This document shows positions 4,083 through 59,574 of a stretch of DNA of 64,000 nt, piece by piece (position 1 is the first letter of the stretch; the number at the start of each line of letters is the position of its first letter). Below the pieces are notes generated by a model. The model made no database searches, was not told the origin of the DNA, and worked only from the letters and a program-made list of their open reading frames with translations. Source of the stretch: Acidobacteriota bacterium (GTDB lineage: Bacteria; Acidobacteriota; UBA6911; RPQK01; CBDAPI01); assembly GCA_965214465.1 (NCBI GenBank), contig CBDCBX010000020.1:554363-618362 (forward strand). Direction: 5' to 3'. A program made the translations under genes and the position numbers.

Positions 4083-5683
4083 ATGAAGTCCATGTCCGGG
4101 TTGATCAGTCTGCTGCTCCTGACCACGGCCTTCGGCGTCGTGGTTGGAGTCCAGAGCCTGTCTCTCGATTTTCCTCTGACCGACGGCGCCTATTATTTCG
4201 ATCATGCCCAGTCGTTTGCGGTCTCTGGCCTTCGGCCGGATCGAGAGTGGTCTCCTCTGTTCGTGATCGGCTACGGAATTCAGCATTTAATCTTCCCGTC
4301 TGGAGATCCCCTCCTGCTCTACCTGACTCACAGGCTGCTGGTTCTCTATGTGGTCGTTCTCCTGTTCTGGGCACTCTCCCGAAAACTTTTTCCGGAGCCG
4401 CTGGCGCTGCTCCTGTCGCTCGGTTTTCTCGGCCATGGGACCGTTCTTTTCGATTTCACGGTCGTCCACGTTGCTGGAGTGGGAGTGATTCTGGTTTTAC
4501 TGCTGGGAGCTTTCTCCCCACGGACCCCCGGCGTCGTCCCCATTCTTCTGGGGTTGGCTTTTCTGGGCGTCTGGATCCGCCCGGAGTACCTTTTCGTCGT
4601 GGCGCGCTGGGTGCCCTGGTTCTGAGACAAGCCTTCACAAGCCGCCGCCTGCTGGGTGGAATGCAGGCCGGGGCGACACTGGCAATCTGCTTGCTGATTT
4701 CTCTTGCGGTGTCGGCTCTTTCCTCCACACCACCTGGGTCCAATCGCTCCTTCGATGTTTTTTCTCAGAGCTTCACGGGGTCAGAAATCCAGGCTTCGGG
4801 GGGGTTGCCGAAGAGCGGACACCTGGACTACGCCCTGCGAGTCGGGGAGGTGTTTGGAGAGGCAGACAGCATCCCTGGGGCGGTACTGGCGAACCCCCGG
4901 GCTTTTCTGGGGCACGTGGCCGGCAACGTGCCCCGCCTGCTCAAGGAATCTCCCTGGGTTTTTCTGCCCGCCCCTGACCGAAGCCAGTGGGCTCCGGTCC
5001 TCTTCCTGCTACTCCTTCTGGTCCTCCTGCAGCCCGGAACCTCCGTCCCCACCACGCCACTGTTCTGGGTGATTTCCGGGGCAGGGGTGGTGGCGAGCCT
5101 GACGGTAGGCCTGGTACTCGAACCCGTCTCACCTTATCTGCTGCCCGCTACCCCGCTGGTCATGGTGGCCGGGACGCTCCTGCTGAAGAGAGCCAGAGAA
5201 GTTCTCCCGGACTGGAAACCGTTTTCCCGGGCCGGGAGACGGCTGCGTTTCGCCGTCATCGTTGCAGCCTTCGTGACCTTGACCCTTCTTCTCGTCCCGC
5301 GGGATATTCACCTGGAGAAGCAGGTGGTGAAACTATCCGAGGCCCTGCTGGCCGAAACGCCGAATCTGGGTACGATTCGGATCCAGGGTTTTTCCAGTTT
5401 GTCCTACTGTGCATATCTTCGAGCCAAAGGCCATCCCTGCGATCGGGTTCCGATCGCGTTGTCCCGAAACCGCAGCGAATGGTCAGCTTTCCTTCGTGTG
5501 AAGGAGGTCAACGCGGTGGTGGTCGATGACTATCTGCGACAGTTCTACGAGGACTCGAACTCTGCAGTCTTGCGAGAGTTCGAGACCGCACCGCAAGAGT
5601 TCGGATTCGAGGCGAGGCTGGAGACCGAGGGAGGCCTTCTGGGCAAGGCCACGCTCTACGTTCCCCGCGGATCGGGGGATTGA
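4083..5683 (+). pseudogene. polytopic membrane protein split by an apparent frameshift near 4600-4625
   Basis: ORF 4083..4625 (frame 0, hydrophobic) ends ...LFVVARWVPWF*. ORF 4247..5683 (frame 2) reads ...GALGALVLRQAFTSRRLLGG... across the same bases and continues as a membrane protein. One indel would join them. Confidence 0.45.
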
Positions 5684-5693
5684 CCTGCCTTCC

Positions 5694-10150: not shown

Positions 10151-10214
10151 TCCCCACCCCCGCCCCGCAAGGGGCGAACACTAAAGCCGGGGCTTCCCCG
10201 CCCCGGCTTTTTTT
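10151..10214 (+). terminator. two-hairpin intrinsic-terminator-like repeat unit, copy 1
   Basis: CCCCGCCCC-GCAA-GGGGCG hairpin with GNRA loop, then GCCGGGGC-TTCC-GCCCCGGC hairpin (10186-10207) followed by a 7-T run. Nearly identical unit at 11411-11477. Confidence 0.5.
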
Positions 10215-10327
10215 GCCCGGTTCCCCACTCAATCGGCCCGCAAGGCCGCAAGGAACGTCCACCAGGCAATTAAGCCGCAGAGGCAGGAGCTTTAAGCGAC
10301 TGCGTCCGGCCGCAGGCCGCGTTCGGA

Positions 10328-10985: not shown

Positions 10986-11410
10986 GTCGACATGCCCCTG
11001 CTCTGAGCCTACCTCTGGAAGAGGAATGAGTCAACAACTGTGTACACAGATGCGCTGATTTGCCGTGGAGCTGAGTCTGTGAAAATGCGCGCTTCCTGAT
11101 GATCATTAGCACCAAAATGTCAAGGTCACGGGAATTGCATGGGATCCATGCTTGAGTTTCGCAATCTGTTGTGAAATGATGTGATTGAGGGGTCATTCGA
11201 ACAATTTAGTCGTCAGGTTTTTTACTCGAGCAGCAACCGGCTGCGGATCAGAGAGGCTCCTTTCCCGGGCGTTCCGCCCGTACTCAAAGGAAGCTCATAA
11301 CGAGGGTCGGTCTGTAGCCAGTCCCGCAATTTGTGGAACGGACTCAGGAGGCGTTTGAAAGGGAACCCGAGATGCGCATCAGCGGGGGTTCCCGAGGTTA
11401 GTCCAAGATT

Positions 11411-11477
11411 CCCCAACCCCGCCCCGAAAAAGGGGCGAACACTAAAGCCGGGGCTTCCCCGCCCCGGCTTTTTCTTT
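11411..11477 (+). terminator. two-hairpin terminator-like repeat unit, copy 2 (group II intron insertion site)
   Basis: Same unit as 10151-10214. Hairpin 11447-11468, T-run 11469-11477. The intron 5' end GTGCG starts at 11478. Confidence 0.55.
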
Positions 11478-11530
11478 GTGCGCCCGGCAGGGCGCACCCA
11501 TTTGGAGATGAAAGTTCTCTACGAACCCGA

Positions 11531-11581
<51 letters not shown>

Positions 11582-11886
11582 TGAAGGAAGCCGCAGGCAA
11601 AGCGCTGGCCTGACGAACAGGAATCGCATATGAGGCGGACGTGCTGGATGAGAAGGCAAATATCTTCAAAGTCCAATACCTGTACGGAAAGCACGGACGT
11701 AGATGCGGCGGGCATAAGCGTGAAGGTGGGTGCGCATTACCCGGGGAGGTCTGCCAGTAGGCCATAGTGCTACTGTCGTCGAGAGGCGGCGGGATGAACT
11801 GGTAGAAGTCAGCCGAGGGCATATTACCTCCATCGACCGGAGGGAAGGCCCGAACGCGAAGAAACGGAAAGGAGACTCGAATTTCG

Positions 11887-12599
11887 ATGACGAGAGGAGA
11901 CGCAGACAGGAAGGCTGAGAAGCCTGAAACCTGTCCAGGAGGTAGCCGACGGAAGCGGCGAGGGACTGGGCGAGGTGCGTCAAACGTCACGGTAAAGAGA
12001 GAGAACTCCAGTCCGGAAGCGATGCATCTGATGGAAGCAGTGGTCGAACGCGAGAACATGCTGGTAGCTCTCAAGCGGGTAGAGGCCAACGGCGGCGCTG
12101 CGGGAGTCGATGAGATGACCGTAGAAGAACTGAGGCCCTATCTGAAGGAGCACTGGCCGCGGATCAAAGAGGAACTGCTGGAGGGACGGTACCAGCCACA
12201 GCCTGTGCGAAGGGTGGAAATCCCCAAACCAGGTGGGGGAAAGCGCCAGTTAGGCATTCCCACGGTGGTGGACCGGCTGATTCAGCAGGCGCTGCATCAG
12301 GTTCTGACGCCGATCTTTGACCCGGACTTCTCGGAGTCAAGCTACGGCTTTCGCCCTGGCCGAAGTGCCCACCAGGCCGTGCAGCAAGCACGAGCTTACG
12401 TGGTGCAAAGCAAGCGGTGGGTCGTAGATCTGGACTTGGAGAAGTTCTTCGACCGAGTCAACCACGACATTTTAATGTCGCGGGTAGCGAGGAAGGTCAA
12501 GGATAAGCGGATTCTCAGACTGATTCGCCGCTATCTGCAGGCCGGCATGATGACCGGTGGCGTGGTATCGGCGCGCCGCGAGGGGATGCTGCGTATTCC
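11887..12599 (+). pseudogene. group II intron reverse transcriptase-maturase, N-terminal part (split by IS21 insertion)
   Basis: [30 protein letters not shown] ... RWVVDLDLEKFFDRVNHD (RT domains 0-2). Reading frame is broken at 12599/12600 by the IS. Confidence 0.8.
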
Positions 12600-12810
12600 G
12601 GGCCAAACCGGCCACTGATTCCGATTGAAACCGGCCACCTGTTCCGGGCCAATCCGGCCGGTGATTCCGGGGCAAAGTAGGCCACTTTGCCGGGCTTTTC
12701 CGGAATCGGTGGTCAGGTTAGCGGAAAGTTCCTGCCCTCAGGAGTTTGCGACGCTGGGCAACGCGGACTATCGTTGCTCCTTTTTCACTTAGAGAGGAAG
12801 AGGAGAACAG

Positions 12811-14373
12811 ATGGCCAATCGGAGGCTGCCCATGCGCAAGATCAAGGAGATTCTCAGACTACATTTTCAGGCCCACTTGTCAGCTCGCCAGATCGCTCGC
12901 AGCTGCTCGGTGTCTCGGGCTACCGTGGGTGATTACCTGAGCCGGACCCGGGCCGCCCAGCTCGACTGGAAACAGGTGGCCCAGATGAGCGAGGTCGAGC
13001 TGGAAGGACAGCTTTTTTCTCCTCCGGCTCCTCGGGGCCGCCACCGCTCTCCACCGGACTTTGCCTACGTTCACCGAGAGCTGCGGGCCAAGTCAGTCAC
13101 GCTGCAGTTGCTCTGGCAGGAGTACAAACAGGGTCATCCGGACGGCTACCAGTACTCGCAGTTTTGCGATCTGTACAACCGCTGGAGAGGAAAGCTCGAC
13201 GTGGTGCTGCGGCAAAACCACCGGGCCGGCGAGAAGATGTTCGTCGACTATGCCGGCCAGACGGTCGAGATTGTCGATCCCAAGACCGGTGAGATGCGTC
13301 AAGCCAACATCTTCGTGGCCGTCTTGGCGGCCAGTAACTACACCTATGCCGAAGCTACCGAAAGCCAGGATCTTGAATCCTGGATCGGAGCTCACGTGCG
13401 GGCCGTGGAGTTTTACGGTGGCACTACCCGGGTGGTGATCCCGGATAACACCCGCACGGCTGTCTCTCAGGCTTGCTTTTACGAGCCACAGATCAACCCC
13501 AGCTACGCCGAGTGGGCAGCCCATTATTCAGTGGCAGTCATCCCGGCCCGGGTGCGGGCTCCTCGGGACAAGGGGAAAGTCGAATCGGCCGTTTTGATCG
13601 TCGAGCGCTGGATCCTGGCCGCCCTGCGCAAGCGACGCTTCTTCAGCCTGGGTGAGCTCAATGCAGCCATCCACGAACTGCTTGGAGAACTCAACCGCCG
13701 GCCTTTCCGCAAACTTGAGGGCAATCGCCTCGAGCTCTTCCGGCGTCTGGATCAGCCCGCTCTCAGACCCTTACCCAGGATCCGTTATCAGCTGGCTCGC
13801 TGGAAGAAAGCCCGCGTCAACATCGACTACCACGTCGAGTTCGAGCGCCACTACTACAGCGTCCCCTATGCTCTGGTCCGTCAGCAGGTCGAGATCCGTT
13901 ACACCCAACACATCGTGGAGATCCTGCACCGGGGCCAGCGGGTGGCCTCGCATCGTCGCAACCGCGTGTCAGGAGCCGCCTCTACCTGCTCCGAGCACCG
14001 TCCACAGTGTCACCGCCGTTATCTGGAGTGGTCTCCTTCGCGGCTGATCTCCTGGGCTGCCAAGATCGGACCCCACTGTGGTGATCTGGTCGAGAAGATG
14101 CTCGCCTCTCGCCGCTATCCGGAACAGGCCTACCGCAGCTGCCTGGGACTGTTGCGGTTGGGCAAGACCTTCGGCGAGGATCGCCTGGAGGCCGCCTGCC
14201 GGCGGGCCCTGGCCTTCTCCACCTTCTCCTACCAGAGCGTCAAGTCCATTCTCAAGACAGGTCTGGACTCCCAACCATTACCCGAGACCCAACCACCACA
14301 ACCGGCTCTGGAACACTCGAACCTGCGCGGAGCCGACTACTTCACTTGTGAGGAAAACTTCCATGCTCATTAA
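12811..14373 (+). CDS. istA: IS21-family transposase
   Basis: 520 aa. N-terminal HTH (RQIARSCSVSRATVGDYL) then DDE core. Overlaps istB at the ATGCTCATTAA start/stop. Confidence 0.85.
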   Translation: MANRRLPMRKIKEILRLHFQAHLSARQIARSCSVSRATVGDYLSRTRAAQLDWKQVAQMSEVELEGQLFSPPAPRGRHRSPPDFAYVHRELRAKSVTLQLLWQEYKQGHPDGYQYSQFCDLYNRWRGKLDVVLRQNHRAGEKMFVDYAGQTVEIVDPKTGEMRQANIFVAVLAASNYTYAEATESQDLESWIGAHVRAVEFYGGTTRVVIPDNTRTAVSQACFYEPQINPSYAEWAAHYSVAVIPARVRAPRDKGKVESAVLIVERWILAALRKRRFFSLGELNAAIHELLGELNRRPFRKLEGNRLELFRRLDQPALRPLPRIRYQLARWKKARVNIDYHVEFERHYYSVPYALVRQQVEIRYTQHIVEILHRGQRVASHRRNRVSGAASTCSEHRPQCHRRYLEWSPSRLISWAAKIGPHCGDLVEKMLASRRYPEQAYRSCLGLLRLGKTFGEDRLEAACRRALAFSTFSYQSVKSILKTGLDSQPLPETQPPQPALEHSNLRGADYFTCEENFHAH

Positions 14374-15106
14374 CCAGACTCTCGAAAAACTTCACTCCAT
14401 GCGCCTGACCGGCCTGGCCGAGGCTCTCACCCAGCAACTCGAAGATCCCGACTCCTCCGTTCTCAGCTTCGAGGAGCGTATCGGCTGGCTGATTGATCGA
14501 CACTGGCTCTGGAGAGAGAACCAGGTCCAGGCCCGGCGCCTGAAAAACGCCCATCTCAAGGACAGCCAGGCTTGCCTCGAGGATATCGACTACCGTCCTG
14601 CCAGAGGACTGGATCGATCCCTCGTCCGTTCCCTGGCCACCTGCGACTGGATCACCAGACATCAGAATCTCATCCTGCTTGGCCCCTGCGGTGTGGGTAA
14701 GACCTTTCTGGCCTGTGCCTTCGCCCAACTGGCTATCCGCCAGGGCCACACAGCCTTCTATACCCGCCAGCCTGTACTCTTTCGAGAACTCTCCATAGCT
14801 CGCGCCGACGGGACTCTGCACAAACGCCTGGCAAAACTGGCCCGTGTCGATATCCTCATCGTCGATGACTTCGCCATGACGGCCTTGGCTGAGAGCGAAC
14901 GTCGTGACTTCCTCGAGATCTGCGAGGATCGTTACAACACTCGCTCCACCATCTTGATCAGCCAGATCCCCATTGCCGATTGGCACCAACAGATCGGTGA
15001 TCCGACTCTGGCCGACAGCATCTTAGACCGGCTCGTTCACAACGCCCATCGCCTGCAACTCGCAGGAGGTTCCATGCGAAAGCGTCTGGCGGCTTCTCAG
15101 GACTAA
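14363..15106 (+). CDS. istB: IS21-family ATP-binding helper protein
   Basis: Walker A LLGPCGVGKTFLA and Walker B ILIVDDF. Start ATG at 14363 overlaps the istA stop. The ORF-track start at 14078 is an in-frame upstream extension. Confidence 0.85.
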   Translation: MLINQTLEKLHSMRLTGLAEALTQQLEDPDSSVLSFEERIGWLIDRHWLWRENQVQARRLKNAHLKDSQACLEDIDYRPARGLDRSLVRSLATCDWITRHQNLILLGPCGVGKTFLACAFAQLAIRQGHTAFYTRQPVLFRELSIARADGTLHKRLAKLARVDILIVDDFAMTALAESERRDFLEICEDRYNTRSTILISQIPIADWHQQIGDPTLADSILDRLVHNAHRLQLAGGSMRKRLAASQD

Positions 15107-15421
15107 AGGCAAAAAGGCTATGGAAACTGCCGCCCTGTGCAAACCCATTCAGCGCTTTGCAGATCTGCTCAGGATTCCCGCACGTGGGTTCTCACAGGGC
15201 TTGGAAAACTCCTCGCTGCGCTCGGCAGTTTCCCACAGTTCCCACCGCCTCTACGACTACTTCACACACATCTTTATCGGAGGTTTCTTGAATGCCAATC
15301 GATCCAAGCTACATTGACTCAAAACGGCCACCTGGCACATCATGAAATCCCCAGCGTCGCTTCGCTCCGACCGGGTGGCCACTTTCCCCGGATTGGGTGG
15401 CCGGTTTCACCGGAATACGCA

Positions 15422-16174
15422 GATGCCGCAAGGCGGTCCTCTCTCTCCCGTGCTCTCCAATGTGCTACTGGATGAGCTGGACAAGGAACTGGAGAGGCGA
15501 GAACATGCTTTCTGCCGCTATGCTGATGATTGCAATGTCTATGTGCGGTCGCAGCGAGCCGGTGAGCGTTGGTCTCGTTGACACAGTTTCTGGAGAAGCG
15601 CCTCAAGCTGAGAGTCAACACTGCCAAAAGTGCAGTGGATCGCCCGTGGAGGCGAAAGTTCTTGGGTTATTCGATGACGGCGCACCGGGAAACTCGGCTG
15701 AAAGTGGCCGCTAGCTCAGTGCAACGTCTGAAGAAACGGCTCAAGGTGGCTTTTCGTCAAGGAAGGGGACGCAACCGGCAACGATTCATCGAAGAACTCC
15801 AGCCTCTGCTGCGCGGATGGGTACAATACTTCAAGCTGGCAGAGGTGAAAGGGACCTTTGAGGAATTGGACGGCTGGATTCGGCGGCATTTGCGCTGTCT
15901 GATCTGGCGTCAATGGAAACGAACCTGGACCCGGGCCAAGAACCTGAGGGCGCGGGGCCTGACGGAAAAACGTGCATGGAAGTCCGCGACCAACGGACGG
16001 GGTCCCTGGTGGAATGCCAGAGCCTCCCACATGCACGCAGCTTTTCCCAAGGCCTACTTTGATCGGTTGGGTCTCGTGTCGCTGCTGACGGAGCAGCGTC
16101 GGTTTCAGCGTTTTTCGCGAACCGCCGTGGTACGGAACCGTATGCCCGGTGGTGTGGGAGGACGGCAGGGGTGA
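15422..16174 (+). pseudogene. group II intron reverse transcriptase-maturase, C-terminal part (RT motif YADD plus maturase X domain)
   Basis: ...PQGGPLSPVLSNVLLDELD...FCRYADDCNVYV then a maturase-like region (GWVQYFKLAE...). Splicing out the IS restores ...ARREGMPQGGPLSP.... Confidence 0.8.
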
Positions 16175-16189
16175 CCCTGCCTCCTACCC
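16156..16189 (+). ncRNA. group II intron domain V (34-nt hairpin with GNRA tetraloop)
   Basis: GGGAGGACGGCAGGG-GUGA-CCCUGCCUCCUACCC: 14-bp stem, 3'-strand bulge, GUGA tetraloop. The IEP stop codon TGA (16172-16174) lies in the loop. Confidence 0.45.
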
Positions 16190-16398
16190 GATCCCTTCCA
16201 ACCACCGAATCGGCCCGCAAGGCCGTGAGGAAACAGTACTCGCCAGAGCACAACGCTTGTTTCCGGCCCGGGGTTTCTGTATTACCTTTGGAAGGCGTAA
16301 GCTGACATGGTGACCCATCGCTTCATCCTAAGCTGGAACTCTGAAACCAGGAGGCATGGTTCAAGGGGTGCGATAGGCGTAATCCAGACAGAAAAGGC

Positions 16399-19847: not shown

Positions 19848-19923
19848 GGGGGACAGGGTTCTCTCGGGTGGTGGGGCCGGCAGGTGCCAGGAAGGGACGT
19901 CAACTAGCGGAAATGACCCCGTG

Positions 19924-28873: not shown

Positions 28874-29032
28874 GGTGATGCCCACTACGAGAAGGTCCGT
28901 CGCCAGGGCAGCATTCAGGATGTGGCTGTCTTGAAAGCGACCGGCGTGAACTGCTGGGGCAAGCGGGAGGTGATTGGTATCAGCTGCGGCTCATCACCGC
29001 TGTCGTCGAGGAGATTCACGAAGACTGGCTGA
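28874..29032 (+). pseudogene. IS256-family (mutator-type) transposase internal fragment
   Basis: GDAHYEKVRRQGSIQDVAVLKATGVNCWGKREVIGIS matches the IS256 transposase core (DATY.KVR..G.V...AVL.A.GV..DG.REVLG). Frame breaks after it; no start and no ends. Confidence 0.45.
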
Positions 29033-29398: not shown

Positions 29399-30382
29399 AT
29401 GTCGGAGTCAATCATGAAAAAGCACGTTCTGGTACTGGCCAGTCCCGGTCATCCCGACCTTCCGACCCTGGATGTCATCCGTGATCGGGCCCACATTCAG
29501 GTAGCCGATAGTCCTGAGCAGGCCCGGTCAGCCGTCGGCCAGGCGGAGATCGTCTTTGCCTTGCAGTTCGACAAGCACTGGTTGCTCCAGGACATCTGAC
29601 CTGGAGCCAGCTCAGTACGCTGGGTTCAATCTTCCTACGCCGGCGTCGAATCGTTGATGTTTCCGGAGTTGTTGGAAAGCCAGGTCGTCCTGACCAACGC
29701 GCGCGGTCTCTACAGCCGTGTACTGGCCGAGTTCGTGGTTGCAGCCATTCTCTATTTCGCCAAGCGTCTGGATGAACTGCGAAGCAACCAGAGAGCCGGC
29801 ATCTGGTCTCGGCTCCAGGTCGAAGAGGTCTGGGGAGGGACGGTCGGGATCGTAGGCGTGGGAGATGTAGGCCGGGCCTGTGCGGGGCAGGTTCAGGCTC
29901 TGGGCATGCGCCTGCTGGGATGCAAGCGGAATCCGGATACCATGCCCGAAATTCACCCTTTTGAACGGATGGTTTCACCCGACCGACTCCTGGAGATACT
30001 CCCGGAGTGCGACTGGGTCGTGCTGGCGACTCCTCTCACAACAAGAACCCGGGGGATGATTGGGGAACCCGAGCTGCGGGCCATGAAACCAAACAGTGTG
30101 CTCATCAACATCGGCCGGGGTGCCACGATCAGAGAGCCGGCTTTGATTCGGGCGCTGCAGGAGGGTTGGATTCGGGGAGCAGCTCTGGACGTGGTCGACC
30201 CGGAGCCGCTTCCAGCCCACAGCCCTCTGTGGGGAATGGACAATGTACTGCTGACTGCTCACTCTGCAGACCACACCTCCGATGACCTGGTGCAGGCAGG
30301 CCGGCTTTTCGTAGGGAACTTTCGCCGTTACGTCGACGGAAAACCCCTGCTCAACATGGTGAATAAACAAGCCGGGTATTGA
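29399..30382 (+). pseudogene. D-isomer-specific 2-hydroxyacid dehydrogenase interrupted by an in-frame TGA (29597-29599)
   Basis: AAGGAG RBS 8 nt upstream of the ATG. ORFs 29399..29599 and 29654..30382 are in the same frame. Readthrough gives ...DKHWLLQDI*PGASSVRWVQSSYAGVESL..., the conserved catalytic/NAD-domain junction. GxGxxG-like VGIVGVGDVGRA follows. Confidence 0.6.
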
Positions 30383-30399: not shown

Positions 30400-31461
30400 C
30401 TAGCCTCCTGCCCCTAGTATCTCCCGCTTCAAATCCTCGTCCAGATTGGCCCCGCTGACCACGAGGCAGACGGTCCGGTTCCTTATGGATTCCCTGGATT
30501 GCAGCGCACCTGCCAGTGGGGCGGCAGCAGCCCCCTCGACCAGATGCCCGGTAGCCTCGTAGAACAATCTCACAGCTTCCTTCAGGGCCCCTTCCGACAC
30601 CAGGATCATCCGATCCACGACCTCCAGCATCAACTTCACCGCTTTCGGGATGGCAATGCGCACTGCCAAGCCGCTCGCAAAGGTGTCGCATGTGGCGGTA
30701 TCCACCGGCCGGCCAGCCTGAAACGACAGGGCCATGCAGGGAGCCGCTTCGGATTGCACACCCACCACCTCGAGATCAGGATCGTGCTCTTTGAGGATGG
30801 ATCCGATCCCCCCGATCAAGGCACCGTTCCCTACAGGCACAAAGACAACCTCCACCTCCGGCAGTGATTTCGCGATCTCCAGCCCGATCGTGGAGGTGCC
30901 GTCATAAATCTCGGGGGTTGATCCATCCTCGACGAAAAGACTTTCTTTGGAAAGGGCATCTGTTAGAAGCTCCTTGGTCTCGTCGATATCTCGCCCCAGA
31001 AACTCGAGGTTGGCCTCAAACTGGCGAATGAGCCTGACCTTGCTCTGGTCACACCCGACTGGAACGCCGACGGTCAAGGGCACTCCATACTGCTGGCAGG
31101 CAAACGCCATAGCGGCGCCGTGATTGCCGGTAGAGGCCGTGACCAGGTTGGGCAGCGTCGCTGCCGGACCAGCGGTCAGGTGGTGAAGAAGATTCAGCGC
31201 ACCTCGGATCTTGAACGATCTCACAGGATTGTCGAATTCGTAGCGCGCATAGGCACGACATCCCACGAGGTTGCTCAAGACAGCCTCCGCCTTCAGCGCG
31301 GAAGGCTTGAGATGCTTCTCCAGAATCCTGGCTGCCGCCACAGCCCGATCAATGGTGGGACGCAGGTTGGTCACAAATGATGGCTCCAGAGAAAGAATAT
31401 CAGAGCCTCGGCAAGGTGTACATGGCCAACGCCGGTGTCTTCGATGACCTGGACGTGGCAC
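30400..31461 (-). CDS. PLP-dependent threonine/serine dehydratase-family enzyme
   Basis: SFKIRGALNLL lysine motif and glycine-rich PLP loop (GNHGAAMA). The true start is probably internal (N-terminal 60 aa are Arg-rich and atypical). Confidence 0.7.
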   Translation of the reverse strand: MPRPGHRRHRRWPCTPCRGSDILSLEPSFVTNLRPTIDRAVAAARILEKHLKPSALKAEAVLSNLVGCRAYARYEFDNPVRSFKIRGALNLLHHLTAGPAATLPNLVTASTGNHGAAMAFACQQYGVPLTVGVPVGCDQSKVRLIRQFEANLEFLGRDIDETKELLTDALSKESLFVEDGSTPEIYDGTSTIGLEIAKSLPEVEVVFVPVGNGALIGGIGSILKEHDPDLEVVGVQSEAAPCMALSFQAGRPVDTATCDTFASGLAVRIAIPKAVKLMLEVVDRMILVSEGALKEAVRLFYEATGHLVEGAAAAPLAGALQSRESIRNRTVCLVVSGANLDEDLKREILGAGG

Positions 31462-32339
31462 TGGACTGGCATCCGGACGTCAAGACCGGAGTCAACAATC
31501 AGGCCGAACAGGCCTTGAACAACTTCACTGTCGAATTTTTCGGCCAGGCGGCCCACGGCGCTTACGATCCCTGGAACGGGCGAAGCGCCCTCGACGCGGT
31601 GGAGCTGATGAACCATGGCATGAACATGATGCGGGAGCATATCGAGCCTACCGCCAGAATCCACTACGTGATTCCTTCCGGTGGGGAGGCTCCCAACGTG
31701 GTTCCGGAGTACGCCAGAGTCTGGTACTTCGTCCGCGATATCAGCCGGGAGAAAGTGGAACGCAACTATGCCTGGGCTCTGGACATTGCCGCCGGAGCAG
31801 CCCGAGCCACGCAAACGGATCACAAGGTCTTTCTAATCACCGGGGTGCACGCCATGCTGCTGAACCGCCCCCTCCAGGAAGCCGCTCAGAAGAATCTCGA
31901 GATCGTAGGAGCTCCCGCTTACACCGAAGAAGAGCAGTCGTTTGCCCGGGAGCTGCAGGGGTTTCTTAAGATTGAACAGAAGGGGCTCTCCACCTCGATC
32001 CGTCCCCTGGCGGGAGAACCGGAACTGGCTGAGGGTGGGTCCACCGACGTGGCAGAGGTCAGCCGCATCACTCCCACCGTCAGCATCACAGTGGCCTCTG
32101 CCGGAGAAGGGCTCCCCTGGCACAGCTGGGCTACCTCCGCTTCCCACGGCATCGCCGGAGCTTCCCGGGCAGCCCAGGTGGCAGCCAGGGCCCTGGCTTT
32201 GAACGGAGTCGATCTCCTGACCGATCCCGACCTCCTGACCCGGGCCCACGCCTTCTTTCTCGAGGAGAAGGGCGAACAGCCGTATCAATCCCCGATACCA
32301 GTCGATCAGAAACCGCCGCTTCCGGAGGGTCGCCAGTAG
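31377..32339 (+). pseudogene. M20D-family amidohydrolase/peptidase (AbgB/hippuricase-like), 5'-truncated fragment
   Basis: Contains the dimerisation-domain and C-terminal catalytic-domain segments (FTVEFFGQAAHGAYDPWNGRSALDA ... IPSGGEAPNVVPE). Lacks the N-terminal roughly 150 aa with metal ligands. Upstream space is occupied by the convergent dehydratase gene. Confidence 0.5.
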
Positions 32340-32417: not shown

Positions 32418-33062
32418 CTAGGCCAGAAGCTTCTCCACCAGATTGCCGTGGACGTCCGTGAGGCGGTGGTGGCGGCCCTGGTACTTGAAGGTCAGTTTCT
32501 TATGATCGATCCCCAGGCAGTGGAGGACGGTGGCCTGCAGATCGTGGACGTGCACCGGATCCTCCAGGATGTTGTAGGAAAAGTCGTCCGTCTTCCCCAG
32601 CGTGATTCCTGCTTTGACCCCGCCTCCCGCCATCCACATGGTAAAGCAGCGGGGATGGTGATCCCGGCCGTAATTGTCATCCTTCAGGGCACCCTGGCAG
32701 TAGACGGTCCTGCCAAACTCCCCGCCCCAGACCACCAGCGTGTCGTCGAGCAGTCCGCGCTGTTTCAGATCGGTAACAAGCGCGGCTGAAGCCTGGTCGA
32801 CGTCACGGCACTGCAGCCGGATGTCACGGGGTAGATCTTTGTGCTGGTCCCAGCCCCGGTGGTAGAGCTGGATGAAACGGACGTCTTTTTCGAGCAATCG
32901 CCGGGCCAGCAGGCAGTTGGCCGCGTACGTACCCGGCGTCCTGGAGTCCGGACCGTAAAGCTCGAAAGTACTTTCCGGTTCAGTGGACAAATCCGTCAGC
33001 TCGGGTACCGACACCTGCACTGGAAGCCAGAGCGCGGGCCGCTTCGACGAAGGTGGTGTCAT
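32418..33062 (-). pseudogene. DUF1501 (sulfatase-like) protein, C-terminal half only
   Basis: [11 protein letters not shown]...[19 protein letters not shown]... is the DUF1501 C-terminus. The N-terminal roughly 250 aa are absent and the ORF overlaps the upstream DUF1553 gene. Confidence 0.55.
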
Positions 33063-34794
33063 TCAGAAGCACCAGCGGCTGAAGAGGTGTATTGGTTCGG
33101 GATCGGCGAACCGTACAGAACTCGCGATCCGGGGCGTCGAAGGTGCCCAGCAAAGGAGGTGGCACGGTGCGCTTCCAGAAAGTGTAGAGGCTGCGTCTGT
33201 AGAGATCAGAGCCCGTGCTCTGGTGGTAAACCTGAGCCGTGTAGAATGCCCCGAAAGCCATTTCTTTCCAGAGACCGGCAGGCTGGTAAGGAAAACCGCT
33301 GGGGCCCCCGATCTCCAGGTTCAGTAATCCGCCCAGAGCCAGAGCTGAATCCCGAATCATCTCAGCCGGCAATCTCAATCGACTGGCGCGAGACAGCCAT
33401 CTGTTCTCCGGGTCGTGGGCGCCCGACCAGGCATTCATCTTCGAGGACTGGCGATAGGTAGCAGAGGTCACGATAAGTTTCTGCATCGCCTTCACATCCC
33501 AGCCGCTGTCCACAAACTCTCTGGCCATCCAGTCGAGCAACCCCGGGTGACTGGGAGGACTGCCCTGAGAGCCGAAGTCCTCACTGGTCTTGACCAGTCC
33601 GATTCCGAAATAGCCCTGCCAGAAACGATTCATGATCACCCGGGAGGTCAGCGGATGGTCAGCGCTGACCAGCCAGCGGGCCAGGCCCAGCCGGTTATTG
33701 GGAAGTTGCTCAGACATTGCGGGCAAACAGTCGGGTACTCCTGACTGTACTTCCTCGCGCTGATTCCGATAATCTCCCCGCTCCAGTAAGAAAGTCTTAA
33801 GAGGCTCCTCTCTTTCCCGCATCACCATGGTCCCGGCCATGGCAGACCGGATCTCCTTGAGCTCCGTGGCTAGAGCCGTCTGCCGAAGGTGTGCATCGCG
33901 CAGCCCGGCCGGGGCGCGGTGCTCGAGAAAGTAATCTCTCAATTCTTTCTTCTGCCCTGGCTTCAGCTCCTCTGCGTCAACCCGGAGCAAGGCTCTGACA
34001 GGCTCATCCCGGGTGAGTTGCAGGATTTCCTCCCGGCCCAGTTGCCGGCTGTAAAAGCGCAGGTCGTCCAGCAGAGCGGTCGTGCCTCTTCGTTGCTTCA
34101 TGAAAGGAAAGTCGGAGTTGACTCCCAGATAGAGGTTGCGATCGTTCTCGATGGTCCCGTTCAAGGTGTCCGAGTCCACCCTGCCTTCCTGCAACTCTCC
34201 ATCCAGGAAAATCTGCAGACCCGGGGCTTGCATAGATCCGTCGTAGACGATGGCGAGATGCTGCCATTTCTTATTCCGCAGGGGGTCCGGCAGCGAGATA
34301 GTCAGGGCTTGATGCGGCCACTCCCGAATCATTCTGAAGGAAAACGGCGTGCCTGGCTGGCCCGGGACCGACACTACCTGATCGCCCAAAAAGATCCCGA
34401 ACCCCCGCTCACCCTGATCCGGATCCCGTCGCGAGAGCAGATATCCCTCAGCGTTACCTGCCGGGAAAAGCCAGAGTGCAATCGTAAACGGTCTTTCTCC
34501 AGTCAGTTGGGCCGCTGCTCCCAGATCGACAAATGTCTCTCCGTCCAGGTTGATACCCTGCCCGACTCGACCCGCTTGATGCCTCACGAACTCACTGCTG
34601 GGGTGGGCGTGGTGATAGTTCCCACTGGTGTCGGCAAAATGACCGTCGAATTCATAGTGGGCGAGCAGGCTGTCATGGGAGGGGACCGGAAACTGGCCGA
34701 GAGCAAGGATCGAAGCTGGAGAGCCCCGTGGAATCCGCGGCAGGATCACAGGAAGACGAACACTGAATAGTGATAAAGTGAGGTGTTTTGGCAA
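32980..34794 (-). CDS. secreted LamG-like plus DUF1553 (PSD1) domain protein, apparently C-terminally truncated
   Basis: Signal peptide, concanavalin/LamG-like region, then DUF1553-like segment ending ...[21 protein letters not shown]. No DUF1549/PSCyt N-terminal portion. Confidence 0.55.
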
Positions 34795-40886: not shown

Positions 40887-41136
40887 ATAGAAATCTCCCT
40901 GTTGGTCAGTCTAGACATGCGGAATCTATCAGACCATCTTACGCCAGTCTGACCTTCGGGGTTACAGGCTGGTGGACTCGCCAGATCTAATCAGAACCGG
41001 GGGCGTTAGGCCGCGGCTACCACTCGGCCCTCGCTACCACTCGGCCCTCGCTAGCGCTCGGGTTCTGATTCAATGGGAGTGAACGCCCTTTGACACTCTT
41101 GCTGGATTTCGGCACCATTCCAGGCGAGGAGCAGGT

Positions 41137-42192
41137 TTGAATTCACTCAGAGACCCCATAGGTCAGCTTCCGCTTGCCCTGCGGGGACTGTGCCTCGCAA
41201 CCCTGATTCTGCTGGCAGCTCCGGGATCCTCGGGTGCCCAGACCAGACAGGTTGAAGGGTCTCTCTCCTCAGGAGCTCGGCTTTTTCGAGATCACTGCCA
41301 GCGCTGTCACAATCCGGAGCTTCGGAACTCGGGACTGGACCTCTCCTCGAGAGAATCAGCCCTGGTCGGCGGCAAGCAGGGTCCGGCTCTCCATCTCGAC
41401 CAACCAGAAGAAAGCCCTGTCTTCAAGAAAACCGCCTCCGGGGAGATGCCTTTTGATGTCAGACTGCCGGAGACGGAAAAACTGCAGCTTCTGGAGTGGC
41501 TCGCATCCGCTGCACCCTGGCCGCAGTATGCGGCGGATGGACCTGCTCTGCCCGACGACGAAGTGCACCGGAATGTCCGAGAGGGAAATACAACCTCCAG
41601 CCAATTTACGGAAGGCAAAGACGAACAGCACTGGGCGTTTGCCCGGACTGAGAAACCGCGTGTACCCGGAGTCGAGGCTGGGAATACACACCCGATTGAC
41701 GCCTTTCTCCTCACTCAGCAGGAAAAGCTGGGGCTCACACCAGTGGGAGAGGCGGACCGCCAAATACTTGTCCGTGGAGATCCACCCGGATGCCCTGGCC
41801 ACAGCTACGAACCTGGATGTCGCCAGCTGGCCGGCCGACATCGTCGACAACCCGGACACCTGGCGGATTCCACTCTGGTAGTGTGGGGAGGAGAATTTGG
41901 TCGGCTCCCCATCAGCCAGCGTTCGGAGTTCGGGACCCAGGGACGCGACCACAACCCGCGGGGGTTCTGCATGTGGATGGCCGGGGGCGGTATCAAGGGT
42001 GGAGTCAGCTACGGTGCCACCGACGAGATCGGCTGGAAGGCTGTGGAGGGTCGAGTCTCAGTCAATGACCTGCACGCCACGATTCTGCACCTGATGGGGC
42101 TGGATCACGAACGCCTTACCTACAGTCACAACGGGCGGCCCTTCCGCCTGACCGATGTGGCCGGCAGGCTGATCCATCCGATTCTGGCTTAA
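41137..42192 (+). pseudogene. chimeric PSCyt1 (CxxCH) plus DUF1549 N-terminus fused to DUF1501 C-terminus (internal deletion derivative)
   Basis: Signal peptide. CQRCH heme-binding motif. DUF1549-like [12 protein letters not shown]...HPIDAFL. Then abruptly the DUF1501 C-terminus [11 protein letters not shown]...[14 protein letters not shown].... Confidence 0.5.
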
Positions 42193-49938: not shown

Positions 49939-51432
49939 ATGAAATCGGCCGGCAAAATGATCACCACCGCTTTCGCCCTCGCCGGGGCTGCAGCATCGCT
50001 CCCCTCGTGCGCCTCGCCGGACACGCAGGATCATGTCACCACGGTCTCATCGACACCGACGCAGGCTTTGAGTGCCGACGGGCAGTACATCTCCTGGAAA
50101 GAACACTTGATCGACGGCGAGGAACTGGGGGGAGTCCCGATCCAGGGAGGCGATGGTCTGCAGATGGCCGATCTGGACCTGGACGGGTATCTGGACATTG
50201 TTTCTGTCCACGAGTCCGACGTTGTCTACGGACAGAGCACCGAGGGCTATGTTCGAGTCGCTTTCGGATCTGAGAACCCGGACGAATGGGAACTGGTGAC
50301 TCTGGCCGAGGGAAAAGAGGCCGCAGCCGCAGAAGATGCATCCATCGGCGATCTCAACAACGATGGCTATCCCGACATTATTGTCGCCTGCGAACTGGCT
50401 CATCTTCTCTACCTCCAGAATCCGGGAGACGACATCCGGCAGGGAGCGAGGTGGCAGCGCGTCATCCCCGACGTTTCCCGGAACCGGGGCTCTTACATCC
50501 GCGTCTTTTTTGCCGACTTCAACGACGATGGCCGACTCGAGGTGGTGGCGGCGAACAAAGGAGAGCAGAGTCCCAGCCTGCAGAGCGCCCGGCTCTACCC
50601 GATCTCTTTGTTTCAAGCCCCCGACGATCCACTGGACAGTTCCGGCTGGGTCGAACGGGAGCTGACTCACGTACTGACCCCGATCAATTCACGCCCGGTT
50701 GATCTGGACGGGGACGGGGATCTGGACATCCTGGGCGGAAGTCGCTTTGAATCGCGCATGCTCTGGCTCGAGAATTTAGGGACTGGTGAGATCCAGTTTC
50801 GATAACACCGAATTGAAGTAGCAGGCCGGAGCGCCCCCTGGCGGGCGCGGGAAATGCATCTGACCGGAATGAACGTTGCCTTTCTGGATGTCAATCGAGA
50901 TGGCAGGCTCGACATTCTCACCCAGGAGACGTTCTCGAAGCTGATCTGGCTGGAGCAACCTGAAGAGCCTGCGTCACCGTGGCAGATCCACCCCATCGGT
51001 TCCATCTTTCCGGATCACGGTGTCGGTGTCGCCGTGGGAGACCTGAACCAGGACGGGCACTCGGACCTGCTTATCGGCAGCTACAGCCGAGGCCCCCGGG
51101 ATCAGGATGGCCCGGAGATCACCAAGGACCATCCGGTGGCGCGGATCGCCTGGTTTCAAAACCCCGGTTCGGAAACTGAAGCATGGGTCAGACACGACAT
51201 CACCCGGCGCAAACGCGGGATGTATGACCAGTTGATCCTGCTTGATCTGGACGGAGACGGTGACCTCGATTTCACAGGAACGCGTGGGAACAGCGCCCGG
51301 TTTGACGGAGTTTTCTGGGTGGAACAGGTCCGTACTCAAAGCCCCGCCGCCGCCTTTCAGCCGGCCCGACAGCAGGAGAGCGAGGAACTCGCCCTCACCT
51401 CCAACGGACTGGAATGGGAAGAACCGGAATAG
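49939..51432 (+). pseudogene. FG-GAP-repeat lipoprotein interrupted by an in-frame TAA (50803-50805)
   Basis: Lipobox LPSCAS. Repeated DxDxDGxxD FG-GAP units in both ORFs (49939..50805 and 50854..51432, same frame). The 48 nt between them are stop-free and continue the repeat (...EIQFR*HRIEVAGRSAPWRAREMHLTGMNVAFLDVNRDGRLD). Confidence 0.55.
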
Positions 51433-51476
51433 TTGGCGAATTGCGTCGACCCGAGAGATTGAGCTACGCTACGCAC

Positions 51477-55581: not shown

Positions 55582-56694
55582 ATGGATTTCAGCATAGACC
55601 CCCAAACACAGGAGCTCCTGGAAAAGATCCAGGACCTCGTCGAGCGGAAACTCTATCCCCTCGAAGCGGACCTGGAAATAAGCGGTATCAAGAGTCTCTT
55701 ACCCAGACTCAGCGAGATTCGAGAAGAGGTAAGAGAACTGGGCTTCTGGTGTCCCCACATCTCCAGGGAACACGGCGGCATGGGCCTCAGCCTGGTGCAG
55801 CACGCACTGGTAAGCGCCGTCCTGGGCCGCTGCCAGCTCGGCCACTATGTGTTCAATTGCCAGGCCCCCGACGCTGGGAACATGGAGATTTTGATCAAGA
55901 ACGGCACCTCAGAACAGAAGCAGACCTTCCTGGAGCCTCTGCTGGAGGGCCGCATTCGAAGTTGCTTTGCCATGACCGAGCCCGAGCGGCCGGGATCGAA
56001 TCCGACCTGGATGGAGACCAGCGCAGTCAAAGATGGCCAGGACTACGTCATCAATGGGCACAAGTGGTTTACCAGCGCAGCCGACGGAGCCAGCTTTGCC
56101 ATTGTGATGGCTGTGACCGACGCCGAGGCCGGTCGCTACGATCGAGCCAGTATGATCCTGGTGCCCACGGACACTCCCGGGTTCCGGCGACTGCGAAACA
56201 TCCCCATCATGGGTCATGTGGGAGAGGACTACTTCAGCCATGCGGAGGTCGTCTTCGAGGACTGTCGGATTCCCCGCGAGAATCTTCTGGGAGCAGAGGG
56301 AGCCGGTTTCAGAATCGCCCAGCAGCGGCTGGGCGCTGGTCGAATCCACCACTGCATGCGCTGGATCGGTATCGGTGAGCGCTCGATCGAGCTGATGTGC
56401 CAGCGGGTCGCAGACCGCGAGCTGGCCCCGGGCCGTCCCCTGGGTTCGAGACAGATCGTGCAGACCTGGATTGCTGACAGCTGGGCGGAGATCCGGGCGG
56501 CGCGCCTCATGGTGCTCGATGCTGCCTGGAAGATGGAGCAAGACGGTCAGCTGGGGGCTCGCAAAGAGATTTCCGCCATCAAGTTTTATGCGGCCAACGT
56601 ACTTCTCAAGGTGCTGGATCGCGCCATCCAGGCCCACGGAGGCTTGGGCGTTACCAGCGATACCCCTCTGGCCCGGATTATGCATGAGATCTGA
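55582..56694 (+). pseudogene. acyl-CoA dehydrogenase, N-terminal 370 aa (gene split by IS1380-like insertion; C-terminal 32 aa at 58341-58439)
   Basis: ACAD fold motifs. ...TPLARIMHEI then stop from inserted DNA. The fragment at 58341-58439 (ERAGRIYDGPDEVHRIVVARELLRPYGVKVTF*) aligns gaplessly with the human MCAD C-terminus ([30 protein letters not shown]). Confidence 0.7.
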
Positions 56695-58340
56695 ATCCGA
56701 GTGAGATTTGGGCCCATAAAAAGAGCCGTAGCTCTCTGATATAAAAGGGTTTACACAAACAAGACTCTAACCAGGAGCTACGGCAATGTTAAGAGCAGTC
56801 TGCCAGAATACCCTGCCATTTCACAGCCACAGAAAGATCACGGCGCGTTTTGATGGGGGAGCCTCACTTCCGACGCAGGATGGTTGTTGTTTGGATCGGT
56901 GGATCGGCAACATCGGCTCTGCGAGGGCTTCAGTTCGTGTATTTCGGAGAGTCGAGACCAACGCTACATTCGTCATGATCTGTTGAAGTTGATCCGACAA
57001 CGAGTCTTGCAGATCGTGGCCGGCTACGAAGACTGTAATGACGCCGATACGCTGCGCTCGGATCCGATGCTCAAAACCGTCTGTGATCAGTTGCCGGAGA
57101 GCGATCCGGATTTGGCCACGCAGCCGACTTTCTCCCGCTTGGAGAACTCCGTCACCAGGAAGGATCTGATGCGTTTGAGCCAGTGGCTGCTAGGCCGTTA
57201 TGTGCGCTCCCTGAAGAAAAGACGTCCCGGTAAGATCATCCTGGATCTGGACAGTACCGACGACCACACCCACGGCCAGCAGGAGTTCTCCTTCTACCAC
57301 GGGTATTACCGAAGCCACATTCTGCATCCTTTGCTGATCTTCGATGCCGACACGGGAGACCTGGTGTGTGCCGTGTTGAGACCTGGCAACAAGGGAGCTG
57401 CCTCTCACATCGTGCCCATTCTGAAGCGAGTCGTGGAGGCTATCCGACAAGGAGTGGGGACGGATGTCGAGATTGAGATTCGGGCCGACAGCGGCTTTGC
57501 CACGCCGCGGCTCTACGAGTTCTGTGAGGCTGAAGAGAATCAACTCCAGTATGTCATTGGGTTAAGTCGAAACCCTCGCCTGCAGCGAGTGGTCGAGCCC
57601 CTGCTGGATTCGACTCGGGAAAGGTTCCTTGAGCTGGAGGAAAAACAGCGTCAGTTTGACGAGTTTCTTTATCGAGCCAACAGCTGGGATCGATCTCGTC
57701 GCGTCATCGTCAAAGTGGAGGTCGATCAGCGCGGGATCAATCGTCGCTTTGTGGTCACCAACCGGGACGATCTCTGCTCCCAATCACTTTATGACCACTA
57801 CACAAACCGAGGACAGACCGAAAACTTCATCAAGGCCTTCAAGAATCATCTGAGCATGGACCGACTCAGCTGTCATCGATTCCTGGCCAATCAGTTTCGA
57901 CTCCTCCTGCATGCCCTGGCTTACCAGATGTTCGTGCGCCTGCGCGACTATCTGCACGGGACCCCCTGGCACAAGCTCGAAATCGAAACCTTACGTCGTC
58001 GTGTCCTCAAGATCGGGGCCCGGATCCGACAAACCACTCGACGCATCTGGGTCCATCTTTCCTCAGCCTTTCCCGAACAACCCCTCTTCCACCTCGTCTT
58101 GAGTCGTCTCAACTCCAGCTAGCCTCTCCCAGCTCCCCGAAAAACCGCTTCCGATACTCACCCAGGCCCAGATCTGTCTGAAATTCACTCCCCAACCACT
58201 TCAAACGCCTCGCCAACCGATATTCTTCGCAAATCCGCCTGTCACACCTGTCCGCTTTCGAGTTGAGCCACTTCTCGAGTCGTTTTTCAACTCCGGACTA
58301 CGGTTCTTGCATAATCCGGGCTGGCGGCCTTCTTTCGAAA
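56695..58340 (+). mobile_element. IS1380-family-like insertion sequence with frameshifted transposase (boundaries approximate)
   Basis: Lies between ACAD codon ...I (56689-56691) and R (58345-58347). Weak terminal IR candidates around 56712-56745 and 58290-58325 (AGARCCGTAG core). No clean target-site duplication found. Confidence 0.55.
56786..58122 (+). pseudogene. IS1380-family DDE transposase with a frameshift near 56880-56990
   Basis: The N-terminal KITARFDGGASLPTQDGCCLDRWI (ORF 56786..56986) is in a different frame from the main body (56884..58122), which carries IAGYEDCNDADTLRSDP and YTNRGQTENFIKAFK motifs. Confidence 0.65.
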
Positions 58341-58439
58341 CGAACGAGCGGGTCGCATTTATGACGGACCTGACGAAGTCCATCGCATCGTGGTGGCCCG
58401 TGAACTGCTCAGGCCGTATGGGGTCAAGGTGACTTTCTA
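58341..58439 (+). pseudogene. acyl-CoA dehydrogenase C-terminal remnant
   Basis: See 55582-56694. Confidence 0.65.
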
Positions 58440-58485: not shown

Positions 58486-59574
58486 GTGGTTACAAGAGAC
58501 TCCCAGGAGAACAAGTTCCTCGACTTGAGCACCACGGTGCGCCCTGGGGAGGAGTTGGACCTGACCCGGCTGGAACCCTACCTGAGAAATCGGTTCCCCC
58601 GGGAATCCGGTCCACTGATCGTGGAGCAGTTCCCTCAGGGACACTCCAATCTGACCTACCTGGTTCGTCTGGGAGATCGGGAACTCGCACTGAGACGCCC
58701 TCCCTTTGGCAGCAGGGTGAAGACGGCCCATGACATGGGCCGCGAATACCGCGTCCTGTCCAGGCTGCACAAGGCCTATCCCCCGGCCCCGCGCCCCTTC
58801 TTTTACTGTGACGATGAGTCCGTACTGGGAGCCCCCTTCTATGCCATGCAGCGGGTCCGGGGGGTGATCATGCGCAAGGACCTTCCACCCGGACTGGAGA
58901 TCCCGCCCGAGACAGCTCGGCGAATGTCCGAATCTTTCATCGACAACCTGACGGAGTTGCACGGATTGGATTACGAGGCCGTTGGCCTGGGCAACCTGGG
59001 CAAACCGGAGGGGTTTGTGGCCAGACAGATATCCGGCTGGATCAAGCGCTATGAGCGATCCCGAACCCACGAACTGGAAGGAGTGGAGAAAATCTCATTG
59101 TGGCTGACGGAGCAAATGCCGCCGGAAGCCGGAAGCGCCCTGATCCACAACGACTACAAGTACGACAATGTCGTCCTCGACGCGGCTGACCTGACACGGA
59201 TCGTTGGCGTTCTGGACTGGGAAATGTGCACTCTGGGGGATCCGCTGATGGACCTGGGAACGGCCCTGAACTACTGGGTGAATGCTGACGATCCGGACGA
59301 CCTGCAGCAGATTCGGTTTGGCCTCACTACCTTGCCGGGAACTCTCACGCGGAGAGAACTGGCGGATCGATACGCCGAGAAATCCGGCCAGGATATTTCC
59401 AACCTTGCGTATTACTACGCGTTCGGCCTCTTCAAGACAGCCGTCATCTGCCAGCAGATTTACTACCGATACCACCACGGTCTCACCAAGGACGAGCGCT
59501 TTCCCGCGTTTCTCGACGCCGCCCGAATCATGATGAAAACGGCAGTCCGGGTTTCCGAAACCGGAATCGTCTGA
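58486..59574 (+). CDS. phosphotransferase (APH/choline-kinase-like) family protein
   Basis: IHNDYKYDNVVLD catalytic loop and VLDWEMCTLGDP motif. Adjacent to ACAD, as in ACAD10/11-type arrangements. Confidence 0.75.
   Translation: MVTRDSQENKFLDLSTTVRPGEELDLTRLEPYLRNRFPRESGPLIVEQFPQGHSNLTYLVRLGDRELALRRPPFGSRVKTAHDMGREYRVLSRLHKAYPPAPRPFFYCDDESVLGAPFYAMQRVRGVIMRKDLPPGLEIPPETARRMSESFIDNLTELHGLDYEAVGLGNLGKPEGFVARQISGWIKRYERSRTHELEGVEKISLWLTEQMPPEAGSALIHNDYKYDNVVLDAADLTRIVGVLDWEMCTLGDPLMDLGTALNYWVNADDPDDLQQIRFGLTTLPGTLTRRELADRYAEKSGQDISNLAYYYAFGLFKTAVICQQIYYRYHHGLTKDERFPAFLDAARIMMKTAVRVSETGIV

Follow-up and report, generated by a model that had tools for sequence, protein, structure and literature searches.

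A single-base change splits a conserved FG-GAP beta-propeller gene in an uncultured acidobacterium: a probable young pseudogene

The window considered here is a stretch of 64,000 nucleotides (nt) from an Acidobacteriota bacterium (assembly GCA_965214465.1, contig CBDCBX010000020.1, positions 554,363 to 618,362), and its focal element is a conserved gene for a beta-propeller protein of the FG-GAP/VCBS type. This gene, which encodes 497 residues, is cut in two by one base change, GAA>TAA. An earlier inspection of the letters alone (hereafter the sequence-only reading) had proposed that the open reading frames (ORFs) at 49939-50805 (288 amino acids, aa) and 50854-51432 (192 aa) share one frame and are split by an in-frame TAA; the sequence and its translation agree with this. 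Conceptual translation of 49939-51435 yields a single open frame in which codon 289 is the sole internal stop, and positions 50794-50811 read CAG TTT CGA TAA CAC CGA, followed by ATT GAA. The 48 nt 3' of the TAA had been described as stop-free and as continuing the FG-GAP repeat, which alignment with full-length homologues bears out: they encode 16 residues (HRIEVAGRSAPWRARE) that pair without gaps with the 18 homologues aligned. The 5' piece pairs with residues 1-288 of 497-aa homologues, and the 3' remainder, callable as the 192-aa ORF from the ATG at 50854, lacks a signal peptide. Each half matches the Pfam families FG-GAP_3 (68 and 55 bits) and FG-GAP (49 and 45 bits) above the gathering threshold.

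When the stop is replaced by X, the best match to the read-through product in the protein collection is a 497-aa protein with 97% identity over 100% coverage (E=0). A total of 3016 matches have E<=1e-5, and almost all of those listed are 460-520 aa long and cover 89-100% of the query. The column of the stop holds Glu in 15 and Gln in 3 of the 18 aligned homologues, and in a 40-sequence alignment E289 is at least 90% conserved. The open 48 nt, the gapless alignment and the conserved Glu column together show that the two ORFs are parts of one split gene and not a chance juxtaposition.

Same-species assemblies were retrieved by exact-protein look-ups of neighbouring window genes. L002 (ERZ28669063, a 1.68-Mb contig) and L003 (ERZ21829562, 529 kb) are independent metagenome assemblies from two other samples, 99.8% identical to window 38540-61504, with identity over 21 kb. 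Both have the FG-GAP gene called as one intact frame of 497 aa, whose sole difference from the window is 50803 G>T. For other parts of the window, L030 is 99.85% identical to 17054-37829, L031 matches 1-12500 with about nine single-nucleotide polymorphisms (SNPs) and one 6-bp indel, and L032 (ERZ28763718) is as close as L031 over 1-12500; L030 and L031 both derive from one conspecific 5.68-Mb contig of ERZ25074053. More distant comparisons were provided by L001, a 97% relative, by L023 (OZ252114.1), a sister species at 88% nt identity, and by L004, at 83% nt identity. Codon 289 is GAA in L002 and L003 and GAG in L001, L023 and L004, a distribution that suggests a shared synonymous GAG>GAA step followed by the private GAA>TAA. 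The 90% cluster of the FG-GAP protein has 12 members, among them eight intact 497-aa proteins on at least 10 contigs; the 288-aa (P0153) and 192-aa (P0147) products are separate protein entries confined to one 831-kb contig, present in both NCBI and ENA and evidently the window's own. The gene-position index contained no exact match to the 288-aa piece, to the 192-aa piece or to a window-specific HisPhos allele, and a scan of JGI metagenomes for the stop site with N at the SNP gave no match either.

The ratio of nonsynonymous to synonymous substitution rates (dN/dS) was calculated against L001 alone, L023 and L004 being left out because frameshifts corrupt their codon alignment. Within one window (~60 kb), the FG-GAP gene has a value of 0.156 and ten genes of the locus average 0.139, which indicates that the FG-GAP gene was under purifying selection until recently. 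Among the 99.8% identical strains dN/dS is ~0.3-0.4, compared with 0.14 against the 97% relative, which is the usual time dependence. As the FG-GAP gene carries no further change, the mutation, if real, must postdate much of the roughly 0.2% divergence that separates this strain from its nearest sequenced relatives.

The consequence of the stop can be judged from the predicted fold. An AlphaFold2 model of the intact homologue P0001, 97% identical to the window protein, is a closed seven-bladed beta-propeller (mean predicted local distance difference test, pLDDT, 86; predicted template modelling score, pTM, 0.86). Its DxDxDG loops occupy approximately residues 78-86, 138-146, 193-201, 255-263, 317-325, 368-376 and 436-444, and residue 289 falls in the strand 287-291, between the fourth and fifth of these loops. 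On this model the truncated product consists of four of the seven blades and would be unable to close the propeller. The intact protein is probably an exported, lipid-anchored lipoprotein, as the sequence-only reading had labelled it: in the alignment, the lipobox Cys24 is at least 90% conserved and follows L-A/S-A/T in relatives, where the window has LPS. With the stop inside a strand behind the fourth of seven blades and no signal peptide on the 3' piece, the split gene most likely represents a null allele and, with that, a very young pseudogene.

Could the TAA instead be tolerated or even used, through readthrough or recoding, a reassigned code, or a two-piece protein re-initiated at ATG 50854? 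The open stretch behind the stop, an ATG 16 codons downstream and the lack of decay in either piece would all suit such a reading. However, codon 289 is never a stop in relatives, being GAA, GAG or CAA in all of them, and programmed readthrough or recoding was rejected on the grounds that the stop is not conserved and that no homologue has one at this column. An altered code was rejected as well, because TAA is a normal terminator that ends 12 of 47 window genes. Re-initiation is opposed by the ATG itself, which is preceded by GGGAA alone with a 0-nt spacing, and by the downstream piece, which has neither the signal peptide nor the lipobox that export requires and begins after a break within a beta-strand of a closed propeller. 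The undecayed state of both pieces is explained by the youth of the mutation, and a functional TAA is very improbable.

The family to which the gene belongs is unusually well conserved and has no characterised member. Its members, of which there are more than 3000, share 50-60% identity over Acidobacteriota, Verrucomicrobiota, Bacteroidota, Gemmatimonadota and Gammaproteobacteria; over 100 residues are invariant, and many of these are charged or His. The nearest solved folds identified by Foldseek are the propeller domain of aldos-2-ulose dehydratase (AUDH; PDB 4A7K), CRTAC1 (9ETN) and integrin alpha heads, all alike in fold (E about 1e-12, template modelling score 0.55-0.61) at a sequence identity of only 14-15%. 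Repeated DxDxDG calcium-type loops, the Pfam families FG-GAP and FG-GAP_3 and a weak AUDH_beta_propeller match are shared with these propellers; unlike them, the window protein is a bacterial lipoprotein without an UnbV_ASPIC or a cupin/lectin domain. The family has neither a curated NCBIfam model nor a solved structure, a PDB sequence search with the family profile gave only marginal matches (E about 0.005), and no conserved gene neighbourhood that might hint at function was found among distant relatives. One family member, P0104, carries a fused amidohydrolase domain.

Two further genes are broken only in the window (Table 1). The TGA noted at 29597 by the sequence-only reading indeed lies inside a D-2-hydroxyacid dehydrogenase gene, whose part 3' of the stop matches Pfam 2-Hacid_dh_C and NCBIfam Dhydh_Halo; L030 has G at 29599 and an intact gene of 327 aa. 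Selenocysteine at this TGA was dismissed, since the 99.85% relative has TGG (Trp) and the protein does not belong to a selenoprotein family. The second gene encodes an acyl-CoA dehydrogenase and is interrupted by an insertion sequence (IS) of the IS1380 family. The insertion is therefore not intergenic, and this lesion was missing from the list of the sequence-only reading. The element is flanked by a target-site duplication, CTGGC, at 56668-56672 and 58321-58325, and is missing from L001, L002, L003, L004 and L023; no further copies were found among the comparison loci. The displaced last 37 codons of the acyl-CoA dehydrogenase lie at 58321-58437. The protein has 401 aa in L001, L002 and L003, and the window's Pfam Acyl-CoA_dh_1 match ends at profile position 127 of 150.

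The IS1380 transposase (56786-58122) had been read as frameshifted, and a -1 frameshift is found in a G5 run at 56855-56859: adding one G gives a 445-aa transposase and lengthens the DDE_Tnp_1_4 match from 452 bits (profile 25-431) to 486 bits (profile 4-431). The element resembles the IS1380 family in its DDE_Tnp_1_4 transposase of ~445 aa once repaired, its length of ~1.65 kb, its inverted repeats beginning with CC and its 5-bp target duplication; it differs in that the single transposase ORF is interrupted by the frameshift. Programmed frameshifting is not known from IS1380 elements, so the window copy is either defective or mis-assembled.

Several length variants are private to the window as well. 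Relative to L031 and L032, a YfhO-like gene has an extra in-frame TGGGGG unit (6 bp, 2976-2993). A 17-bp tandem duplication (GCTACCACTCGGCCCTC x2) lies at 41016-41049, upstream of a chimeric PSCyt1-DUF1501 ORF, and 1-nt length differences occur at 43306 and 28617, where the window lacks bases.

Table 1. Coordinates of the split FG-GAP gene and of the other disrupted genes and mobile elements in the window.
Feature	Position	Strand	Remarks
FG-GAP/VCBS beta-propeller lipoprotein (probable) gene, 5' piece	49939..50802	+	Codons 1-288: signal peptide, lipobox Cys24, blades 1-4
In-frame TAA, codon 289	50803..50805	+	T at 50803 private to window; ancestral codon GAA (Glu)
Same gene, 3' remainder	50806..51432	+	Codons 290-497, blades 5-7; Pfam FG-GAP_3; homologue alignment
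D-2-hydroxyacid dehydrogenase gene	29399..30382	+	Private TGG>TGA (Trp67>stop) at 29597-29599; A at 29599
Acyl-CoA dehydrogenase gene, cut by IS1380 insertion	55582..56694	+	370 aa vs 401 aa
IS1380-family insertion sequence, 1648 bp	56673..58320	+	Private; inverted repeats CCGGATTATGCA; junctions read
Membrane protein gene with frameshift	4083..5683	+	Frame shifts between nt ~4602 and 4628; relatives have about 529 aa
M20 peptidase remnant, 5'-truncated	31377..32339	+	320 aa; starts 2 nt from divergent PALP start codon
DUF1501 fragment	32418-33020	-	Profile 198-390 of 390; overlaps DUF1553/PSD1 fragment; also in L030
DUF1553/PSD1 + Laminin_G_3 fragment	32980-34749	-	Without PSCyt1/DUF1549 and end of PSD1; also in L030
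PSCyt1-DUF1501 chimeric ORF	41137..42192	+	351 aa; also called in L002/L003
Group II intron cut by IS21	11563..16174	+	D1-D4 RNA at 11563-11850 (Rfam RF02001, RF01998)
Group II intron reverse transcriptase (RT) parts and maturase	11887-12618 and 15318-15566; 15569-16174	+	Pfam RVT_1, GIIM
IS21 inside RT gene	istA 12811-14373; istB about 14370-15106	+	Pfam rve + Mu-transpos_C_2, IstB_IS21
IS256-type (Mutator family) transposase remnant	28877..28993	+	Pfam Transposase_mut, profile 166-204 of 379 only, E=2.7e-5

Whether the T at 50803 is a mutation or a consensus error decides how the split gene is to be read. The preferred explanation, to which a probability of about two-thirds is assigned, is that a G>T change at Glu289 has produced a real, very young nonsense pseudogene in this strain, within a lineage of ordinary decay, the T being a real allele that is fixed or segregating in the sampled population. 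It is supported first by the spectrum of the window's private single-base differences: the ratio of transitions to transversions is about 41:16, and there are 24 synonymous, 22 missense and 2 nonsense changes, where random error would be expected to give a ratio near 0.5 and roughly 25% synonymous changes. This excess of transitions and the synonymous share speak for real evolution rather than noise. When polarised with L001, the window-derived changes comprise 5 synonymous, 3 missense and 1 nonsense. No methylation motif or other recurrent context was seen in the ±10 nt around private SNPs, and the private 6-bp repeat unit and 17-bp tandem duplication are typical biological polymorphisms.

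Other observations weigh against a real mutation. The TAA allele is a singleton, present on one contig, whereas the intact gene occurs on at least 10. The 2 nonsense changes compare with 2.4-3.3 expected if there were no selection against nonsense at all, a near-neutral count with which very young mutations, relaxed selection and errors are equally compatible. Moreover, three 1-nt insertions fall in a 130-bp stretch of the APH gene in L003 (L003:18416-18546, corresponding to window 58623-58751), a cluster that looks like local consensus noise, and the transposase frameshift of the newly inserted IS1380 sits in a G5 homopolymer, where it resembles a typical long-read error.

Frameshift and nonsense artefacts are a known problem of long-read or metagenome assemblies, and on these grounds the base at 50803 may be a consensus or assembly error, possibly together with the base A at 29599 and the G lacking from 56855-56859, so that the true gene is intact. 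This explanation is unlikely, though it carries real weight. It would account for an allele found in one assembly alone, for a freshly inserted IS that is already frameshifted, and for missing bases also at 43306 and 28617. In addition, near-identical same-species assemblies each have private lesions (a nonsense change in L002, the insertion cluster in L003, a shortened IstA in L032), and the name of the ERZ25074053 comparator contig contains '12x', which was taken as low coverage. The singleton state, the homopolymer frameshift and the 1-nt insertion cluster in a sister assembly are features that such artefacts share. Unlike them, however, the focal lesion is a substitution and not an indel, it lies in non-repetitive sequence with no motif around private SNPs, and most other lesions of the window recur in independent assemblies. 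The private differences have the composition of real divergence, and lesions shared between assemblies prove real gene decay in the lineage, with the sister species hit independently in the same genes.

The shared lesions comprise one frameshift and a group of truncated or fused genes. The frameshift that had been placed near 4610 is confirmed by P0121 (529 aa), whose residues 1-173 align in the frame of 4083 and residues 183-528 in the frame of 4571; in the representative search, homologues of 526-530 aa match at residues 1-173 only. L031 and L032 do not differ from the window in this stretch and are likewise called as 180 + 340 aa. In the M20 remnant, the dimerisation domain (M20_dimer) alone was found, at residues 48-128, in keeping with the 5' truncation assigned to it, and L030 has the identical 320-aa call. 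Pfam profile coordinates also uphold the description of the DUF1501, DUF1549 and DUF1553 genes as truncated or chimeric. Here, the two overlapping fragments at 32418..34749 are deletion remnants, and the chimera joins a PSCyt1 match at residues 54-105 to the last ~100 residues of DUF1501 (profile 287-390). As these lesions are identical in independent assemblies of other samples, they are real and older and do not represent assembly errors.

The sequence-only reading had named relaxed selection, a small or bottlenecked population and assembly error as possible causes. Assembly error falls away for the shared lesions and applies only to the two private stops (TAA and TGA), the inserted IS1380 and its transposase frameshift. 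Its statement that gene decay is unusually dense holds for the window, in which 8 of about 38 non-mobile genes are broken and 5-6 mobile elements are present, while its qualifier 'recent' suits the private lesions and not the older shared ones. Coding density is still about 89%, with about 11% intergenic sequence, which speaks against long-standing erosion.

The mobile elements of the window include, besides those in Table 1, an rve transposase and a DDE_Tnp_1/DUF772 transposase, and two toxin-antitoxin pairs are also present. For the group II intron, no match to domain V/VI was reported downstream (Rfam, gathering threshold); related intron fragments occur in L001 at 3704-4244. Window segments 1-15421 and 17054-37829, which adjoin here, lie ~600 kb apart on the conspecific 5.68-Mb contig (at 3.15 Mb and 2.56 Mb), and their junction coincides with the IS21 and group II intron region (window 12600-17054). 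This may reflect either an IS-mediated rearrangement between strains or a repeat misjoin in one of the assemblies. The window IS21 is ~5% different from the copy in L031 and L032, where istB is truncated to 137 aa beside a Neur_chan_LBD gene.

Smaller differences from the conspecific assemblies accompany other repeats. Two copies of a ~68-bp repeat (10146-10212 and 11406-11473), 93% identical and inverted relative to the copies in L031, flank a PIN/antitoxin pair in intergenic sequence and may be a repeat similar to miniature inverted-repeat transposable elements or to repetitive extragenic palindromic sequences. At the ends of the rve-transposase element (18150-19736), the window and L030 differ by a 66-bp insertion and a 35-bp deletion (19822-19887 and 18096-18102), which suggests differing excision or insertion footprints, or different IS copies, in the two strains.

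In the course of events that the preferred reading implies, a G>T transversion converting GAA (Glu289) to TAA would have split a conserved single-copy FG-GAP gene in this strain, after its divergence of roughly 0.2% from the nearest sequenced relatives. Translation would stop in the strand after blade 4, leaving a four-blade fragment and an unexported downstream ORF. The lineage would show IS activity involving IS1380, IS21, IS256-type and other DDE/rve transposases as well as the group II intron, with older deletions and frameshifts fixed in the species and newer nonsense alleles and IS insertions varying between near-identical strains. Weak purifying selection or drift would be the cause of the FG-GAP loss.

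Recurrent lesions in relatives fit a clade with weak purifying selection or ongoing gene loss. L002 has its own TGG>TGA in a 1127-aa Tricorn-amidohydrolase gene (L002:7372, corresponding to window 45927). The sister species L023 carries a +1 frameshift at codon ~268 of the FG-GAP gene (L023:10001-11474), outside a homopolymer, and has its APH gene in three frames, with the Tricorn and ceramidase-like genes altogether missing. In L004, Tricorn is in three frames and the ceramidase-like gene is truncated and frameshifted. In addition, the FG-GAP protein P0154, from an L001-type strain, is frameshifted after about residue 385, bringing to three the independent lesions of this gene (window, L023, P0154) among the 12 members of its 90% cluster.

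These repeated hits also lend some colour to an adaptive, niche-driven loss, in which the Tricorn-amidohydrolase/ceramidase-like/FG-GAP/APH neighbourhood is dispensable or costly in the habitat: the FG-GAP gene is broken three times, Tricorn is broken in L002 as well as in L004, L023 has both Tricorn and the ceramidase-like gene deleted, the latter gene is truncated in L004, and APH is broken in L023 (in L003 too, possibly through error). Yet the FG-GAP gene is intact under purifying selection in L001, in L002 and L003 and in the 5.68-Mb genome, unrelated window genes are often hit too (2-hydroxyacid dehydrogenase, acyl-CoA dehydrogenase, the membrane protein, M20, DUF1501/1553), and a generally high pseudogene rate could account for the lesions of the neighbourhood. 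An adaptive loss is distinctly improbable. A tentative alternative, doubtful at present, is that the clade is in an early phase of lineage-wide genome erosion, marked by IS bursts, by near-neutral accumulation of nonsense and frameshift changes and by repeated inactivation of this same neighbourhood.

Young nonsense pseudogenes accompanied by IS expansion are known from Shigella, Yersinia pestis, Burkholderia mallei, Sodalis and early-stage host-restricted symbionts. The window resembles these genomes in that one base change creates a stop in a gene that is otherwise intact and was constrained until recently, in lesions that vary between near-identical strains, in several active IS families with IS in coding sequence, and in deletion chimeras between paralogous families. 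In contrast to them, it derives from a metagenome-assembled genome of an uncultured acidobacterium with a large genome (conspecific contig of 5.68 Mb), genes of a free-living type and ~89% coding sequence.

The split FG-GAP gene is a known kind of event, an ordinary young pseudogene or a consensus error, and either way matters little in itself. For annotation, both ORFs belong together as one disrupted gene, and the comparison of near-identical independent assemblies sorts reproducible lesions from singleton ones. Early genome erosion, if true, would point to a recent lifestyle shift, such as a move to host association, in a phylum generally considered free-living. Provided that the private lesions are real and their density holds genome-wide, the lineage would offer a natural example of the earliest gene decay in Acidobacteriota, in which the pseudogenes are still undiverged and one could still read off the succession from IS expansion through deletions between paralogues to point lesions.

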